Source: a virus. Taken from it: a DNA stretch of 16,360 nt. Made by a program: the position numbers and the translations under genes. The notes under the pieces were generated by a model. The model was given only the letters and a program-made list of their open reading frames with translations. It was not told the origin of the DNA and searched no databases. Shown piece by piece: positions 1,525 through 6,658 of this stretch. The stretch lies in the UHGV virus genome UHGV-0072940, one strand, 5' to 3'. The first letter of the stretch is position 1; each line of letters starts with the position of its first letter.

Positions 1525-1815
1525 TCATCTTTTAACTCCATATACCGCCAATACCCGTTTCATCACTGCACTCTGGCGACACTCCTTAAAAATCAGGTTC
1601 GTGCTCACCTTTCCTTCCCGTTCTTCCCTGGTAGCAAACCGGTAATACACCGTTCGCCAGACCTTACCATCAATGACAAGGATTCCTGCCCGCGCCATTT
1701 TAGCCGCAGCCTGATTTATACTGGTTACGGTTGCGCCTGTTAGCGCGGCAACGTCCGGCGCACAGAAGCTATTATGCGTCCCCAGGTAATGAATAATTGC
1801 CTCTTTGCCCGTCAT
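1525..1815 (-). CDS. ren: Ren protein
   Basis: 96-aa product MTGKEAIIHYLGTHNSFCAPDVAALTGATVTS matches lambda Ren as recalled. Same length as lambda ren (291 nt). ATG overlaps the P stop (ATGA). Confidence 0.85.
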   Translation of the reverse strand: MTGKEAIIHYLGTHNSFCAPDVAALTGATVTSINQAAAKMARAGILVIDGKVWRTVYYRFATREEREGKVSTNLIFKECRQSAVMKRVLAVYGVKR

Positions 1816-2513
1816 ACACTTGCTCCTTTCAGTCCGAACTTAGCTTTAATTTCTGCGATCTTCGCCAGCGCCTGAACATGATTTAGAGGTCTGCCGCCCA
1901 TGACAGGAAGTTGTTTTACTGGTTCAGGGATCGCCTCACCACGGTTAATTCTCGCAGTCATATGGACAAGCTCATCTGCGGCCTTACGGCGTAATTCCGC
2001 ATCAGTAAGCGCATTGGCCCGCATGTTCTGATACAGGTTGGTAACCAGCCAGTAGTGCGCGTTTGATTTCCACGGATAAGACTCCGCATCCGGATACAGG
2101 CCTCGCTTCCGGCAATACTCGTAAACCATATCAACCAGCTCGCTGACGTTTGGCAGTCCGGCGATAACGGATGCTTCTTCCCGGCACCATGCAACAAACT
2201 GCCCGGGTGATGGCAGAAATGGTCGATTCTGCCGACGGGCTACGCGCATTCCTGCGTTAACCTGTTCCATTGTGGTGATCCCGTTTTCCCGGAAAGCCAG
2301 AACCCACTGGCGGCGGATTTCGTTCAGTTCGTTCTGGTCACGGTTAGCCAGACTCGCCGGGAAAGTTGCCAGTAACTGGCTGAACACACCGTTGATGATC
2401 TGCGCAACCTGCTGTACCTGCGGCTTTTCGTCGTACTGTTCCGGCATGTTGTTGGCGATCCGACGCATCTGCTCACGGTCAAAGTTAACCATCTGTGCGG
2501 CGATGTTTTTCAT
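1812..2513 (-). CDS. P: replication protein P (DnaB helicase loader)
   Basis: 233-aa product MKNIAAQMVNFDREQMRRIANNMPEQYDEKPQVQQVAQIINGVFSQLL is near-identical to lambda P as recalled. 702 nt, as in lambda. ATG overlaps the O stop. Confidence 0.9.
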   Translation of the reverse strand: MKNIAAQMVNFDREQMRRIANNMPEQYDEKPQVQQVAQIINGVFSQLLATFPASLANRDQNELNEIRRQWVLAFRENGITTMEQVNAGMRVARRQNRPFLPSPGQFVAWCREEASVIAGLPNVSELVDMVYEYCRKRGLYPDAESYPWKSNAHYWLVTNLYQNMRANALTDAELRRKAADELVHMTARINRGEAIPEPVKQLPVMGGRPLNHVQALAKIAEIKAKFGLKGASV

Positions 2514-3448
2514 AAATCCACCCCGTAAATCCAGTCAGTGTTTGTCAGGTCGAGTTTTGGTTTTCCAGCTGTCACGCCAGCCTGTTGCTTGTTACGGTTG
2601 ATTTCGAGTTGGGTCCACTTGTCGCGGAGTTTGGCCGGACTTAGCACGTTACCGGACCAGAAGTTGTCCTGGCATGCCCAGCGGAACAGCACGCACATGT
2701 CGCGGTGGTTACGTCCGTCACGTTCACGCATCAGGCGGATATCGTTAGCCCACCCTGCAAAATTCGGTTTTCTGGCTGATGGTGCGATGGTCTTCACCAT
2801 GTCAAACATCCACTCTGCGGCGGTCAGGTCTTCTGCTGTTCCCCACTTGCTGCCGCTCTGAATTGCAGCATCCGGTTTAACCACAGAAAGATCGTTTTCT
2901 GGCTGGTCAGAGGATTCGCCAGAATTCTCGGACGAATAATCTTTTCTTTTTTCTTTTGTAATAGTGTCTTTTGTGTCCCCCTGTTTTGAGGGATAGCAAT
3001 CCCCTAATTTGAGGGATGTTTTATCCCTCGTTTTAGGGGATTTTCCCTCGTTTTGAGGGATGTCCCTCATTTTAGGGGAACCTCCCTCGTTTTGAGGGAT
3101 GCACCATTCTGAGGTGTTTTTATTTGGTCCAAACATGCCGCCTTGCTGCTTGATAATATTCATTCTGACGAGTTCTAACTTGGCTTCATTGCACCGTTTG
3201 ACGGGTAACTTTGTAATCTCGCTAAGTTGAGAATCGGTGATTCTGTCCATTGGTTTATTCCACCCATAGGTTTTACGCAGAATGGCAAGCAGCACTTTAA
3301 ACTGTCGCTTGGTCAGATCTGCGCCTGAATAAGCCTCAAGCAGCATATTTGATAGTCTGGCGTAACCATCATCGAGATCTGCCACATTACGCTCCTGTTC
3401 GGCAAAGTTACCTCTGCCGAAGTTGAGTATTTTTGCTGTATTTGTCAT
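2510..3448 (-). CDS. O: replication initiator protein O
   Basis: 312-aa product. The N-terminal (MTNTAKILNFGRGNFAEQERNVADLDDGYARLSNMLLEAY) and C-terminal parts match lambda O; the central part is encoded by the iteron array. GGAG RBS 7 nt upstream of ATG 3448..3446. Confidence 0.9.
   Translation of the reverse strand: MTNTAKILNFGRGNFAEQERNVADLDDGYARLSNMLLEAYSGADLTKRQFKVLLAILRKTYGWNKPMDRITDSQLSEITKLPVKRCNEAKLELVRMNIIKQQGGMFGPNKNTSEWCIPQNEGGSPKMRDIPQNEGKSPKTRDKTSLKLGDCYPSKQGDTKDTITKEKRKDYSSENSGESSDQPENDLSVVKPDAAIQSGSKWGTAEDLTAAEWMFDMVKTIAPSARKPNFAGWANDIRLMRERDGRNHRDMCVLFRWACQDNFWSGNVLSPAKLRDKWTQLEINRNKQQAGVTAGKPKLDLTNTDWIYGVDL
2976..3100. repeat. ori iterons, about 6 copies of a ~19-bp O-binding repeat, with an adjacent AT-rich region at 2930..2975
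   Basis: Tandem units of the form tCCCTCnttTTgAGGGAt at about 2976..2994, 2999..3017, 3023..3041, 3043..3061, 3062..3079 and 3081..3100, all inside the O reading frame. They are followed, in the direction of O transcription, by an A/T-rich run (aataatcttttcttttttcttttgtaatagtg). Confidence 0.8.
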
Positions 3449-3458
3449 AATGACTCCT

Positions 3459-3535
3459 GTGGATTGATCCAGTAATTCCCTCAGAATTGCATATCAATTT
3501 GCTTAGAGTCCCCGGCGGCCACCGGGGATTTTTTC
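3459..3535 (+). ncRNA. oop: OOP-like antisense RNA (about 77 nt) with its promoter pO and terminator
   Basis: Plus-strand promoter-like hexamers TTGAGT (3424..3429), 16-bp spacer, CATAAT (3446..3451). Intrinsic terminator: stem CCCCGG (3510..3515) / CCGGGG (3522..3527) followed by TTTTTT. The transcript is antisense to the 3' end of cII and lies in the O-cII gap, as lambda oop does. Confidence 0.6.
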
Positions 3536-3777
3536 TTTGTGATTTCATCAAGCGCATACTTAAAAGCCCTGCTAATCGGACTGATGTCTGATGCCATTCC
3601 GAAAGCACACAGGACCGAAGCAATAAACCGCCAGTCCGTTCTGCTTATCTTCGATTCATGACAGCCAATCATCTTTGCCAGACCGCGCTGGGTAAGCGTT
3701 GACAGGTTGATGAGTAAATCAGTTTCAGCGCGATCAATTTCTCGCTGTGATAGTTTGCTGTAACTTGTTTGTTCCAT
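3481..3777 (-). CDS. cII: CII-like transcriptional activator
   Basis: 98 aa. The C-terminal KKKSPVAAGDSKQIDMQF resembles lambda CII KKRPAATERSEQIQMEF, there is a central HTH-like segment, and the gene sits between cro and O. Divergent from lambda CII overall. Confidence 0.7.
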   Translation of the reverse strand: MEQTSYSKLSQREIDRAETDLLINLSTLTQRGLAKMIGCHESKISRTDWRFIASVLCAFGMASDISPISRAFKYALDEITKKKSPVAAGDSKQIDMQF

Positions 3778-3862: not shown

Positions 3863-3908
3863 TCGCTTTGTCAGCGACGTAGGACGAATGTCCATTGTGA
3901 AAAGAGCG
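3863..3908 (-). promoter_or_regulatory. nutR: boxA, spacer hairpin, boxB
   Basis: Minus-strand reading: boxA CGCTCTTTT (3908..3900) 8 nt past the cro stop; a spacer containing a GGAC/GTCC hairpin (3882..3893); CTACG; then boxB UCGCUGACAAAGCGA (3877..3863), a 5-bp stem with a GACAA pentaloop. Confidence 0.6.
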
Positions 3909-3915
3909 GTGTTAC

Positions 3916-4143
3916 TTATGCAGCCAGAAGGTTCTTTTTGCTTATTTCAAGCATTTCGCTTGCTTGATATTTGCCACCAGAAATCTCTTCGATTTTTGAT
4001 GCGTATTTAGTTTTCCCAAAAAACTCAGTCTTAGGGAGGAAGCCGTTTTTGAGCCACTTATAGACAGCCCTTTCGCTAACTCCACAAGCCTTCGCAACTT
4101 CAGGGATGCCGACACCTTTAATCGGCTCATCAAGATTTTGCAT
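3916..4143 (-). CDS. cro: Cro-like repressor (HTH)
   Basis: 75-aa product with HTH segment GIPEVAKACGVSERAVYKWLKNG. First gene of the PR operon, divergent from cI. AAGGA RBS upstream of ATG 4143..4141. Confidence 0.75.
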   Translation of the reverse strand: MQNLDEPIKGVGIPEVAKACGVSERAVYKWLKNGFLPKTEFFGKTKYASKIEEISGGKYQASEMLEISKKNLLAA

Positions 4144-4221
4144 AGGAATATCCTTTTTCGTACTTTCAGTACGTATTATGGTTGAACTGAAAGTTTTTGC
4201 AAGTGCTTTAGTATCGTACTC
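4144..4221. promoter_or_regulatory. OR operator region with divergent PR (minus) and PRM (plus)
   Basis: PR on the minus strand: -35 TTGCAA (4197..4202), 16-bp spacer, -10 CATAAT (4175..4180). Dyad sites: CGTACTTTCAGTACG (4159..4173) and GAACTGAAAGTTT (4184..4196), centres 24 bp apart; a third dyad AGTATCGTACT (4210..4220) overlaps a PRM -10 candidate TAGTAT (4208..4213). The cI ATG at 4222 is about 8 nt from that -10, so the cI mRNA is probably leaderless. Confidence 0.6.
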
Positions 4222-4929
4222 ATGGTTCAGAATGAAAAAGTGCGCAAAGAATTCGCCCAGCGGCTAGCGCAAGCCTGTAAAGAAGCTGGTCTTGATGAAC
4301 ATGGTAGGGGAATGGCTATAGCCCGTGCCCTTTCTCTTTCGTCCAAAGGCGTTAGCAAATGGTTTAATGCTGAGTCTTTACCGCGTCAGGAAAAAATGAA
4401 TGCGCTTGCGAAATTTCTAAACGTTGATGTTGTTTGGCTTCAGCACGGCACTTCGTTAAATGGAGCGAATGATGAAGATACTCTTTCATTTGTTGGCAAA
4501 TTAAAAAAAGGGTTAGTGCGCGTGGTTGGTGAGGCAATTCTTGGTGTTGATGGTGCCATCGAGATGACCGAAGAGCGCGATGGGTGGCTCAAAATTTATA
4601 GCGATGATCCAGATGCCTTTGGTCTTCGTGTGAAAGGAGACAGCATGTGGCCCAGAATAAAATCAGGAGAATATGTACTCATTGAGCCTAACACCAAAGT
4701 ATTCCCGGGTGATGAGGTGTTTGTCAGAACCGTTGAAGGACACAACATGATTAAGGTTCTTGGCTATGACAGAGATGGAGAATACCAATTTACAAGCATT
4801 AACCAGGATCACAGGCCTATAACGTTGCCTTATCATCAAGTAGCAAAGGTGGAGTATGTAGCTGGTATTCTGAAGCAATCTCGCCATCTGGATGACATCG
4901 AGGCAAGGGAGTGGCTGAAAAGTTCGTGA
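4222..4929 (+). CDS. cI: CI-type prophage repressor (N-terminal HTH, C-terminal S24/LexA-like peptidase domain)
   Basis: 235 aa. N-terminal HTH region, C-terminal GDSMWP serine motif with a downstream Lys (NMIKVLGYD). Divergent from cro across an operator region. Not lambda immunity by sequence. Confidence 0.85.
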   Translation: MVQNEKVRKEFAQRLAQACKEAGLDEHGRGMAIARALSLSSKGVSKWFNAESLPRQEKMNALAKFLNVDVVWLQHGTSLNGANDEDTLSFVGKLKKGLVRVVGEAILGVDGAIEMTEERDGWLKIYSDDPDAFGLRVKGDSMWPRIKSGEYVLIEPNTKVFPGDEVFVRTVEGHNMIKVLGYDRDGEYQFTSINQDHRPITLPYHQVAKVEYVAGILKQSRHLDDIEAREWLKSS

Positions 4930-4989
4930 CTTCATCGTCACATAGCTGGTAACCAGTGGCCAGAAGAAACGTTTGGGTGAGGAGGATAG

Positions 4990-5331
4990 ATGGCGTTCAC
5001 TGACCTTGAATATCAAGCGGTCAAAAAAGAAGTTCACCAATTCATTGAAAGCATAAGGCCGCCTGAACATATCCGCAATGAACTGGATATTGTTTATAGC
5101 ATCAATGACCAAACGATAGATATCGGCGAACAGCGCCCCGTGTGGCAGGGCAACCCAGGTGAAACAAACATCCTGCCATCAGCAAGAATCAAGTACATAC
5201 GTTCTCTGGATAGATGGAAAATCTATTGGATGCGGAAGGATATGAAATGGCATCAGTACAGTACTGAACTTTCGCTGACTGATGCGCTTGAGCTTGTGCG
5301 TGCTGACCCGGATTGCTGCTTCTTCGGATGA
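4990..5331 (+). CDS. hypothetical protein A (113 aa), first gene of the cI-linked operon
   Basis: Strong RBS GAGGAGG 5 nt upstream of ATG 4990. No terminator between the cI stop (4929) and this gene. No recognisable motif. Confidence 0.6.
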   Translation: MAFTDLEYQAVKKEVHQFIESIRPPEHIRNELDIVYSINDQTIDIGEQRPVWQGNPGETNILPSARIKYIRSLDRWKIYWMRKDMKWHQYSTELSLTDALELVRADPDCCFFG

Positions 5332-5401
5332 GTGAAGAGACGTTTGGATGATGGATGGTCGCAGAGATGCTCGTAGAGCATACAGCGATGCAGGAGAATT
5401 T

Positions 5402-5836
5402 ATGGCACTTAATTTAGAAAGAATATCTTTTATAACCCCATTTGATAGCAGCGAAGAACCCAACCAACCGACGCTTAATTTTACATGCAATGAATTTCCT
5501 GCGCGGCTATCAATTGATTTCAGGGTTGGTATGATCGGGTTGAAACCAAATTCAAGATATAATTTGGGTATTATGGTAATCCCCGCGCACCTAATTATAA
5601 AAAAAGGTGAGGAAATTCAATTCCCTGACGGCTCTTCGGAATCAGTTTCACTTTTCATCGATACGAAAGATAGCCATTTTGAAACAGGGGTTGGCGGACA
5701 GGTAATAGTAACATTGAAAGAAATTAGGGTCCCAGCTAAAGGGCTGTATAGTGTTATAGGGATATTGCAAGATAATGAAGACCCTAAAAATGAACTTCAT
5801 AAAAATGAATCATTTTTCACCGTAGAGCTATTATGA
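5402..5836 (+). CDS. hypothetical protein B (144 aa), second gene of the cI-linked operon
   Basis: Start placed at the internal ATG 5402 preceded by AGGAG (six-frame ORF begins at 5348). AT-rich coding sequence. Stop overlaps the next start (ATGA at 5833..5836). Confidence 0.55.
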   Translation: MALNLERISFITPFDSSEEPNQPTLNFTCNEFPARLSIDFRVGMIGLKPNSRYNLGIMVIPAHLIIKKGEEIQFPDGSSESVSLFIDTKDSHFETGVGGQVIVTLKEIRVPAKGLYSVIGILQDNEDPKNELHKNESFFTVELL

Positions 5837-6453
5837 GTGACGACAGTAATTTAAATAATCATGGAAAGCAAGACACCAACATATCTGAAAGCCGGAGGTT
5901 GAAGGTTGTTGGCGGTTCTGATTTTGAGGCTGAATTTGATAATTCTCCCACCAAGGTGCAAAATAATTACATAAAACCGCCACAAACGGAGGAAGAAGTG
6001 GGAACGATCAGCAGAGAGGAACTTGATGCTCGCTTAGCTGCTAATAAAGCAGAGATGGAGTCTATTGCTTCCTCCATTAGGGCTGACATGGCTCTATCTC
6101 GTGAAAGCGTTAATGTCCAATTTGCATCACTTAATGCAGCCATAAGCTCTCTATCGTCCAAGATCGATGGAAAGATGGATAGCGCTGCTGGCGATATAAA
6201 AGCAATTAATGGGAGATTCGAAGGAATTCAAGGACAAATAACAGGGGTTAATACCGCAATTAGTGGTGTTCAGTCGGGTATTTCTATACGATTAGCCATT
6301 TTTAGTGTCATTATCGCTGTAATAGTTGCGATTCCCGGGCTGGTATCAGCTTTAAAGTCAGACCACGCACCTTTGCAACAGCCTTCCACTTTGCAAGCGC
6401 CGCCACAAAATACCCAGCCAACAGACAACAAAAAAATCACTCCCCAGCATTAA
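5833..6453 (+). CDS. hypothetical membrane-anchored protein C (206 aa), third gene of the cI-linked operon
   Basis: Translationally coupled to B. Polar N-terminus, long Ala/Ser/Ile-rich helical segment, one hydrophobic span LAIFSVIIAVIVAIPGLVSAL near the C-terminus, then a Pro/Gln-rich tail. Confidence 0.6.
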   Translation: MSDDSNLNNHGKQDTNISESRRLKVVGGSDFEAEFDNSPTKVQNNYIKPPQTEEEVGTISREELDARLAANKAEMESIASSIRADMALSRESVNVQFASLNAAISSLSSKIDGKMDSAAGDIKAINGRFEGIQGQITGVNTAISGVQSGISIRLAIFSVIIAVIVAIPGLVSALKSDHAPLQQPSTLQAPPQNTQPTDNKKITPQH

Positions 6454-6460
6454 CGCATTA

Positions 6461-6488
6461 ACCCGGCTTCCGCGCCGGGTTTTCTTTG
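6461..6488 (+). terminator. rho-independent terminator closing the cI operon
   Basis: Stem CCCGGC (6463..6468) / GCCGGG (6474..6479), 5-nt loop, then TTTTCTTTG, immediately after the stop of gene C. Confidence 0.65.
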
Positions 6489-6658
6489 CCTCACGTTCGC
6501 CCACCTAAAAAACATAACCAATTGTATTTATTGATGTAACTCGCTAAACCATGCAGTTATGATCCCTGCCGCATAACCTTCATCAGCCACATTTTCAAAA
6601 ATAAATTTCCTTATATATCAGAATCATACTTCGTAGAGTTAATAAATCACCAAAATTC

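Follow-up and report, generated by a model that had tools for sequence, protein, structure and literature searches.

A two-gene cassette in the cI–N cargo slot of a 933W-immunity lambdoid prophage as a candidate phage-exclusion module

The slot between the repressor gene cI and the antiterminator gene N of lambdoid phages is a documented cargo hotspot with exclusion genes (PMC7067206), and rexAB of lambda, stk of 933W and bstA are exclusion or abortive-infection systems that reside in it (PMC3564112; PMC7067206). The stk gene has been reported to be cotranscribed with cI (PMC3564112). Here we analysed the virus genome UHGV-0072940, a stretch of 16,360 nucleotides (hereafter the window), in which three genes of one orientation, designated A, B and C, lie behind cI in this slot. 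We describe B-C as a cassette of its own, built of a small soluble partner and a predicted membrane protein, and consider it as a candidate phage-exclusion module.

The comparison with RexAB of lambda reveals both a common plan and clear differences. B-C lies in the same interval from cI to the terminator Timm and the OL/PL region, on the same strand and with the same operon logic, and both systems consist of two genes, one for a soluble cytoplasmic protein and one for an inner-membrane protein, as predicted in the case of B-C. RexB, however, is a polytopic membrane protein with four helices, whereas C has a single C-terminal helix preceded by a long coiled coil; B comprises 144 residues as against ~279 in RexA, and none of A, B and C matched any Rex model in Pfam, NCBIfam or PADLOC. 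RexAB acts against T4 rII and other phages through depolarisation of the membrane. Soluble-plus-membrane prophage defence pairs are also encoded beside the repressor by the mycobacteriophages Sbash (gp30/31) and Butters (gp30/31), which resemble B-C in that a cytoplasmic and a membrane protein are combined and are produced by the prophage from that place, but their membrane partners are polytopic and their hosts differ from those of B-C. The 933W Stk cassette (L0083-stk-L0081), whose tyrosine kinase aborts HK97 infection, shares with B-C the place behind cI-A and both the left and the right joints, whereas the proteins are unrelated and C has no kinase domain.

Cassettes A and B-C in the repressor operon

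The window bears the early-left arm of a lambdoid prophage, inverted relative to the lambda map, and its positions 3900-7400 are 100% identical to a prophage of Escherichia coli O10:H32 strain NMBU-W12E19 (NZ_CP042892). It is a 933W-immunity lambdoid prophage, in which the A-B-C segment makes up the distal portion of the operon of the repressor (PRM operon). A preliminary description of this DNA had reported three co-oriented open reading frames behind cI, a GAGGAGG ribosome-binding site ahead of A, an ATGA overlap of B with C, the lack of a terminator between cI and C, and an intrinsic terminator just before OL/PL; all these elements were recovered at the same places (Table 1). The gaps between cI and A and between A and B measure 60 and 70 nt, respectively. 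From the cI stop codon to N, no terminator-like site was detected on the + strand besides that at 6460-6488, the interval 4929-6460 being free of them. The folding energy of the latter site is −17.3 kcal/mol (z score −3.4), a value equalled in 0 of 200 shuffled sequences, and its homologues are the terminators annotated as Timm in HK542 and as tM in 933W. Internal promoter signals in the A-B-C operon were not above chance, and an Rfam scan of 4930-6490 found no non-coding RNA. Furthermore, in the published Phi24B/933W transcriptomes cI, the DUF3024 gene, L0083 and stk shift jointly, with log2 values of −1.2 to −1.4 (PMC10789677), which is consistent with one transcript. The proposed read-through from PRM is compatible with the operon layout.

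Megablast against phage genomes revealed two sources for this segment. Positions 4930-5370 are 98% identical to 933W-type Stx (Shiga toxin) phages, and positions 5333-6490 share 98.9% identity with the phages HK542 and HK244. The 933W gene order is cI, L0084 (= A), L0083, stk, L0081, tM, nutL, N, and HK542, which has lambda immunity, shows the order lambda-type cI, B, C, Timm, OL/PL, N, thus indicating that B-C occupies the exact rexAB position of lambda. In HK542 and HK244, rexAB is directly replaced by B-C behind the lambda-type cI. With the common order cI, cargo, Timm, OL/PL, N, the earlier assignment of the cargo to the rexA-rexB slot is well founded. The window flanks, cro-OR-cI-A on one side and OL-N on the other, are 99.5-99.7% identical to stk-carrying O157:H7 prophages, and this allows us to conclude that B-C replaced L0083-stk-L0081 in an otherwise 933W-type immunity region.

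The joints at which the exchange took place can be recognised. Two copies of the 14-nt motif GAAGARACGTTTGG are present in the window, at 4963 and 5334, while 0 of 200 shuffles contained two or more, and a repeat scan revealed nothing more. Both copies match the last codons of lambda-type cI (the HK542 cI ends ...VIASQWPEETFG*), and from copy 2 through the start codon of B the sequence is identical in the window and HK542. These cI-end fossils act as homology patches for cassette exchange. The right joint consists of the terminator and ~60 nt beyond it, to ~6545, and is common to the window, 933W and HK542. When we examined 56 loci with C homologues, the E. coli-type loci lacking A had one copy of the motif, 499 nt ahead of C, and those with A had two copies, 870 and 499 nt ahead of C, which exactly flank A. 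It follows from this motif-copy rule that A and B-C are separate cassettes recombining at conserved linkers. The view of A-B-C as one module, taken in the preliminary description, had to be abandoned: A is a repeat-bounded cassette in its own right, and A and B-C each occur without the other.

Membrane protein C and its interchangeable partners

C is a protein of 206 residues that matches phrog_5820, a PHROG of unknown function, with an E value of 1e-76. It begins with a variable, partner-specific head (residues 1 to ~56-60), followed by a stalk with an unbroken heptad register of ~95 residues (~57-152, ~14 heptads), which starts at the conserved SREELDARLAANKAE motif. Next come a single strong hydrophobic segment at ~154-176 (Kyte-Doolittle 2.71) and a Pro/Gln-rich tail of ~30 residues. 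C has no signal peptide, and its N-terminal domain is large and charged, so that the head and stalk would reside in the cytoplasm and the tail in the periplasm. C is thus predicted from its sequence to be a tail-anchored inner-membrane protein with ~150 of its 206 residues cytoplasmic. Of the earlier suggestion that C is a possible membrane effector, the membrane part stands, being supported by the single strong helix; the effector part is a proposal, to which we return below.

A search of 1.84 billion representative proteins with the C profile yielded 300 clusters at E ≤ 1e-3, 102 of them at ≤ 1e-10. Nearly all family members have 150-270 residues and the same layout as C, and at least one relative comes from Betaproteobacteria (Cupriavidus). 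The tail motif QPIIIQVPQ is nearly invariant in the C relatives, as are the residues P184, I187, Q188 and P190, and in the E. coli/HK542 C it is diverged, residues 183-192 reading QPSTLQAPPQ. Weak matches of C to Baculo_PEP_C, MakE, SmhB, SlaB, LmuB, a tail needle and a short tail fibre were rejected, as they reflect coiled-coil composition and not homology.

The conserved part of C is combined with changing partners. In all C homologues examined, a small gene lies just upstream, overlapping the C gene or within ~20 nt of it, and at least four mutually unrelated partner families were found in this place: B (143-144 residues, an Ig-like (immunoglobulin-like) beta-sandwich), P1 (~96 residues, no known domain), P2 (~99 residues, no known domain) and P3 (112-135 residues, two CxxC pairs). 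A Pfam scan of these four families revealed no domain. The partner in Cedecea is a true B homologue (37% identity, 2.6e-30). The partners of 97-99 residues in Yersinia and Pectobacterium were tried as short B homologues and rejected, since hhalign gave a probability of only 0.1-0.2%. The N-terminal 58-116 residues of C co-vary with the partner family, against a conserved stalk, membrane helix and tail; for instance, the head is LKVVGGSDFEAEFDNS with B and LRAVPNCGSGID with P3, and longer, different heads accompany P1 and P2. Judging from this pattern, the C head is likely to be the docking site of the partner. Moreover, pairs were found outside the immunity region, still as pairs, in three loci (L004, beside DinI; L052; L055), and this persistence away from cI indicates that the functional unit is the partner plus C.

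B/C orthologues were found down to 37-53% identity with synteny kept, and their dN (non-synonymous divergence) is 0.12-0.65, with synonymous sites either saturated or at dS (synonymous divergence) of ~1.9-3.2; B and C are under purifying selection. Within the 56 loci, a repressor lies no more than 1.5 kb upstream of the C homologue in 52, the repressors being grouped into 19 clusters at 90% identity. Distant C relatives also keep synteny: one locus has cro, cI (S24), a gene of 112 residues and an overlapping C-like gene, and another has the order partner, C-like gene, N. B-C is present in 51 of 5,426 complete E. coli genomes, always in single copy and always in the chromosome, with and without A, and behind lambda-type, 933W-type and other repressors. 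At least four of these 51 copies are broken, by IS1 in two cases (H71, H72) and by an internal deletion that shortens C to 104 residues in two others (H79, H80; positions 2932-3246 of locus L012). Such broken copies may mean either that defective prophages decay or that C is costly.

B itself (isoelectric point 4.9) has neither a signal peptide nor a hydrophobic segment and is predicted to be cytoplasmic. It matches phrog_5893, another PHROG of unknown function (2e-50), and its family is narrow, comprising 12 clusters in Enterobacterales. Its predicted structure, with a pLDDT (predicted local distance difference test) of 66.8 and a pTM (predicted template modelling score) of 0.61, is a seven-strand Ig/FnIII-like (FnIII, fibronectin type III) beta-sandwich. 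As a functional clue this fold was set aside, because generic sandwiches of the kind, found in glycosidases and adhesins, are undiagnostic. Homology of B to L0083 of 933W was likewise rejected (E = 3.6). A start of B at ATG 5348 (162 residues) was considered as well; its extra codons fall inside the joint shared with 933W and HK542, and the orthologues have 143-144 residues. Since the sequence from copy 2 to the B start is the same in the window and HK542, we regard the upstream start as an artefact. No mention of the protein accessions was found in the searchable literature or in the DefensePredictor supplements.

Gene A, other cargo and the surrounding layout

A, a soluble acidic protein of 113 residues without a hydrophobic segment, is L0084 of 933W and matches phrog_3467. 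No recognisable motif had been noticed in A, B or C at first, but A clearly belongs to DUF3024: it scored 108.7 bits against the Pfam model PF11225 (2.4e-31, residues 4-113; cut-off 24.9). It also matches the PADLOC candidate PDC-S43 (7.2e-42, residues 1-113), so both models are covered end to end. The PADLOC check (PADLOC-DB v2.0.0) was thus positive for A as a candidate and negative for the other two, B matching no model and C matching LmuB alone, in its coiled-coil region (E = 0.016, 11.9 bits). The A structure was predicted with a pLDDT of 88.7 as a helix, a five-strand antiparallel sheet and a second helix. Its structural neighbours are uninformative (PsiB 6.1, AcrIIA11 5.9), and a viral structure library gave no match. 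Structure prediction, another check suggested at the outset, provided folds for B and A and a function for neither.

A search for A homologues gave 84 loci, and a cI-type repressor lies directly upstream in 78 of them. Clustering of these repressors at 60% identity gave 11 groups, so that at least 11 immunity types are represented, and the linkage holds even for A homologues only 38% identical to the A of the window. Downstream, A is paired with at least eight cargoes other than B-C, Stk included, and is also found alone. By approximate counts from the 84 loci, L0083-Stk-L0081 stands behind A in ~30, B-C in ~14 and an uncharacterised pair of 177 and 86 residues in ~13; ParA-like ATPases occur in several loci, and one locus each has an NYN-domain protein, a PDC-M63 pair (DUF6932 plus partner) and a pair of HigB-like and HTH-Peptidase_M78 proteins matching PD-Lambda-2_B (8e-35). 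With a repressor upstream in most loci and varied cargo downstream, A is a constant neighbour of cI at the upstream border of a slot whose cargo varies. No anti-phage test of PDC-S43 or DUF3024 is reported in the searchable literature, and the defence label is a predicted one. As a candidate label, it may represent guilt by association with the bordering slot, for the constant place of A beside the cargo could alone explain its link to defence genes.

The expectation that lambdoid phages carry varied exclusion or defence cargo here was borne out, since PD-Lambda-2-like and PDC-M63 genes join rexAB, stk and bstA. These two pairs sit behind distant cI-A pairs, at positions 4207-5638 of locus L143 and 3901-5324 of locus L141, respectively. 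The pair of 177 and 86 residues was seen at 4032-4883 of locus L070 and in ~12 other viral loci, and its 177-residue protein has no Pfam or PADLOC match. L0083 of 933W (locus L002, 3470-3931) carries the label of a RuvC-like Holliday junction resolvase (PMC10789677, table; RefSeq annotation), an odd neighbour for a kinase exclusion gene.

A is also found away from cI, in a cargo region associated with DinI, where the Stk cassette accompanies it in Erwinia and where it stands by itself in Rahnella. This second prophage hotspot adjoins DinI and tail-fibre genes, as in loci L014 (3071-6130, Erwinia aphidicola), L015 (Rahnella) and L004 (Yersinia), and holds A-L0083-Stk and a gene of 47 residues, A alone, or a P1-C pair. 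The presence of the same cassettes at both sites indicates that they move between the two hotspots.

The features of the window are collected in Table 1. Beyond N, the + strand order is DUF2528, cIII, gam, bet, exo, int. Two open reading frames right after N (7392-7862 and 7909-8205; 156 and 98 residues), which have no Pfam match, lie in the most AT-rich part of the region, with a GC fraction of 0.34-0.38, and resemble a second cargo slot at the position of the ral/sieB-type genes of lambda. The lambda cIII thermoregulator element (Rfam RF01804, 88.5 bits) covers the start of the cIII gene at 8931-8989.

Table 1. Genes, control elements and cassette boundaries in the window
Feature	Coordinates	Strand	Evidence
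P	1812-2513	-	
O	2510-3448	-	
cII	3481-3777	-	
cro	3916-4143	-	
OR/PR/PRM divergent control region, 933W immunity type, between cro and cI	4144-4221		Homologous 933W interval annotated oR1-3, pR, pM; window flanks 99.5-99.7% identical to stk-carrying O157:H7 prophages
cI repressor, 933W type	4222-4929	+	Pfam HTH_3 1.2e-05, Peptidase_S24 4.4e-16; homologous to 933W cI
Left boundary copy 1, fossil of lambda-type cI 3′ end	4951-4980	+	Reads NQWPEETFG* just past the 933W-type cI stop; GAAGAAACGTTTGG at 4963-4976
Gene A	4990-5331	+	GAGGAGG at 4979-4985
Left boundary copy 2, B leader and B ribosome-binding site	5334-5401	+	GAAGAGACGTTTGG, reads ..EETFG* just past A (fossil at 5328-5351); same sequence after lambda-type cI in HK542
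Gene B	5402-5836	+	AGGAG 6 nt ahead of ATG
Gene C	5833-6453	+	Start overlaps B end as ATGA
Intrinsic terminator (Timm/tM), closing the immunity transcript and opening the right boundary of the cargo slot	6460-6488	+	Stem-loop 6460-6481, then T run TTTTCTTT to 6488
PL-like promoter in OL region, upstream of nutL and N	6672-6700	+	TTGATA, 17 nt spacer, CATTAT; region near-identical to 933W, where nutL and N are annotated downstream
Antiterminator N, far side of immunity region	6950-7333	+	Pfam N_peptide 2.1e-15

Proposed function of B-C and its alternatives

Taken together, the location in the slot, the constant membrane protein with swappable partners, the tight coupling of the two genes and the rapid turnover of cassettes make exclusion the best reading of these data. 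We consider B-C to be an autonomous two-gene module, most likely a lysogen-expressed two-component phage-exclusion system of the abortive-infection type, and assign this interpretation a probability of about one half. According to this model, C would be synthesised in the cytoplasm and fixed to the inner membrane by its C-terminal helix; its long coiled-coil stalk would form oligomers, and its N-terminal head would be specific to the partner. The soluble beta-sandwich protein B, the translation of which is coupled to that of C, would dock on the C head and hold or gate C, acting either as an inhibitor whose loss frees C, in the logic of toxin-antitoxin pairs, or as a sensor that activates C, as proposed for RexA-RexB. 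Upon superinfection, a phage product or the loss of B would release C, such that membrane function would be damaged before the invader completes its cycle. The PRM-driven transcription in this strain, the binding of B to C, the membrane damage and the anti-phage effect are all steps that we infer.

Several observations weigh against this interpretation. B and C have no meaningful match in Pfam, NCBIfam, PADLOC or PDB sequences. The membrane helix of C is plainly hydrophobic, without polar pore-lining residues, and the conserved periplasmic tail motif is not obviously needed for a toxin triggered from the cytoplasm. The model of B is of moderate confidence, and its fold is generic. Finally, non-defence cargo occurs in the slot as well, an example being Hex, which phage 434 encodes on its PRM transcript (PMC3564112).

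The Hex precedent bears directly on one alternative, namely, that B-C serves in lysogenic conversion or regulation and has no part in defence against phages; C could then be a membrane scaffold altering host physiology or prophage induction. The lack of a defence match for B and C in PADLOC would agree with such a role, and so would the sub-threshold CCDC90-like/DUF1640 matches among the relatives of C. Nevertheless, we find this alternative unlikely, because the slot turns over rapidly and alternates with known exclusion genes, and unrelated partners swap on a constant membrane protein, both of which are typical of conflict systems and not of regulators with a housekeeping task.

The likeness to the DUF1640/CCDC90-like proteins (MCUR1, CCDC90B and prokaryotic homologues; PF07798) lies in the layout of head, coiled-coil stalk and C-terminal membrane helix. 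When 39 distant C relatives were compared with the family model, 17 matched DUF1640 over the stalk and membrane helix, all below the PF07798 cut-off of 33.5 bits; C relatives scanned singly scored 20-23 bits, and the best E value among the 39 was 2.4e-07. The C of the window had no match to the Pfam model at E ≤ 0.1, and the label DUF1640 given in UniRef to one distant relative was discarded, as Pfam did not confirm it. A beta-layer motif, [aliphatic]-A-T-K-[polar]-[D/E], has been described at the stalk start of DUF1640-family proteins (PMC4786415). HMMER aligned L-A-A-N-K-A-E at the stalk start of C, which includes A-N-K-A-E, the most conserved motif of C, to K-A-T-K-E-D of PDB entry 6h9l, though weakly (E = 0.11). 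As no score reaches the family threshold, we do not claim membership of C in DUF1640, whose known roles, moreover, are mitochondrial and not antiviral. A broader proposal, which we regard as speculative and rather improbable, is that the C family (~300 clusters at 50% identity, in Proteobacteria) represents an unrecognised class of prophage immune effectors: tail-anchored oligomeric coiled coils with a head that takes interchangeable, unrelated sensors (B, P1, P2, P3 and others), forming a divergent bacterial/viral branch of DUF1640/MCUR1.

Alternatively, B-C could stop the DNA of a superinfecting phage from passing the inner membrane without killing the cell, in the manner of HK97 gp15, P22 SieA or T4 Imm, with the periplasmic tail of C contacting the injection machinery or a membrane receptor. 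C is indeed a predicted inner-membrane protein of an immunity operon, and the tail motif is conserved in its relatives. On the other hand, most of C, ~150 of 206 residues, would face the cytoplasm, what varies is the partner and the head, both on the cytoplasmic side, suggesting that recognition occurs inside the cell, and in this E. coli C the tail motif has diverged. We consider an entry block rather improbable as well.

Still more doubtful is the possibility that B-C is a toxin-antitoxin-like addiction pair, with B as a labile antitoxin and C as a membrane toxin, which chiefly stabilises the prophage. As in type II toxin-antitoxin systems, a small upstream gene is coupled to a downstream one (by ATGA here and within ~20 nt in all relatives); the upstream protein is acidic and translationally coupled to a membrane protein, unrelated upstream partners accompany one downstream family, and disrupted copies such as those with IS1 or a truncated C would be expected if C were costly. 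However, a Pfam-type scan detected in B no DNA-binding domain that might serve autoregulation, and B-C would be driven by the repressor promoter and not by a promoter of its own. Many toxin-antitoxin pairs are also abortive-infection systems, so this alternative partly overlaps with exclusion. A single system with A, B and C as its three components is highly improbable: the three genes are adjacent and co-oriented, share one terminator and recur in this arrangement behind four repressor types, but roughly half of the E. coli-type loci with B-C, and every such locus of Klebsiella, Cedecea, Yersinia and Pectobacterium, have no A, A stands with Stk, with at least seven other cargoes or alone, and recombination joints lie on both sides of A.

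In this work, we defined B-C, and not A-B-C, as the true unit of this locus, together with the joints at which its cassettes recombine, and for the C family we revealed a conserved membrane core with swappable partners. B-C is thus an uncharacterised cargo of unusual modular design in a known exclusion slot, and a good anti-phage candidate. HK542, a culturable phage in which B-C lies directly behind a lambda-type cI, makes clean genetics possible. Should B-C prove inactive against phages, position in the slot would not be a sufficient predictor of defence, and for DUF3024 it may already be the case that PADLOC flags PDC-S43 only because it borders a defence hotspot. Phage exclusion has its original home, in the form of rexAB, in the cI–N region of lambdoid phages, which still yields systems such as Stk and BstA. 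If B-C does exclude phages, this region would have provided a type of effector that is widespread and into which different sensors can be plugged, and if both the kinship with DUF1640 and the effector class were true, a scaffold of the mitochondrial inner membrane would be linked to an antiviral ancestor.

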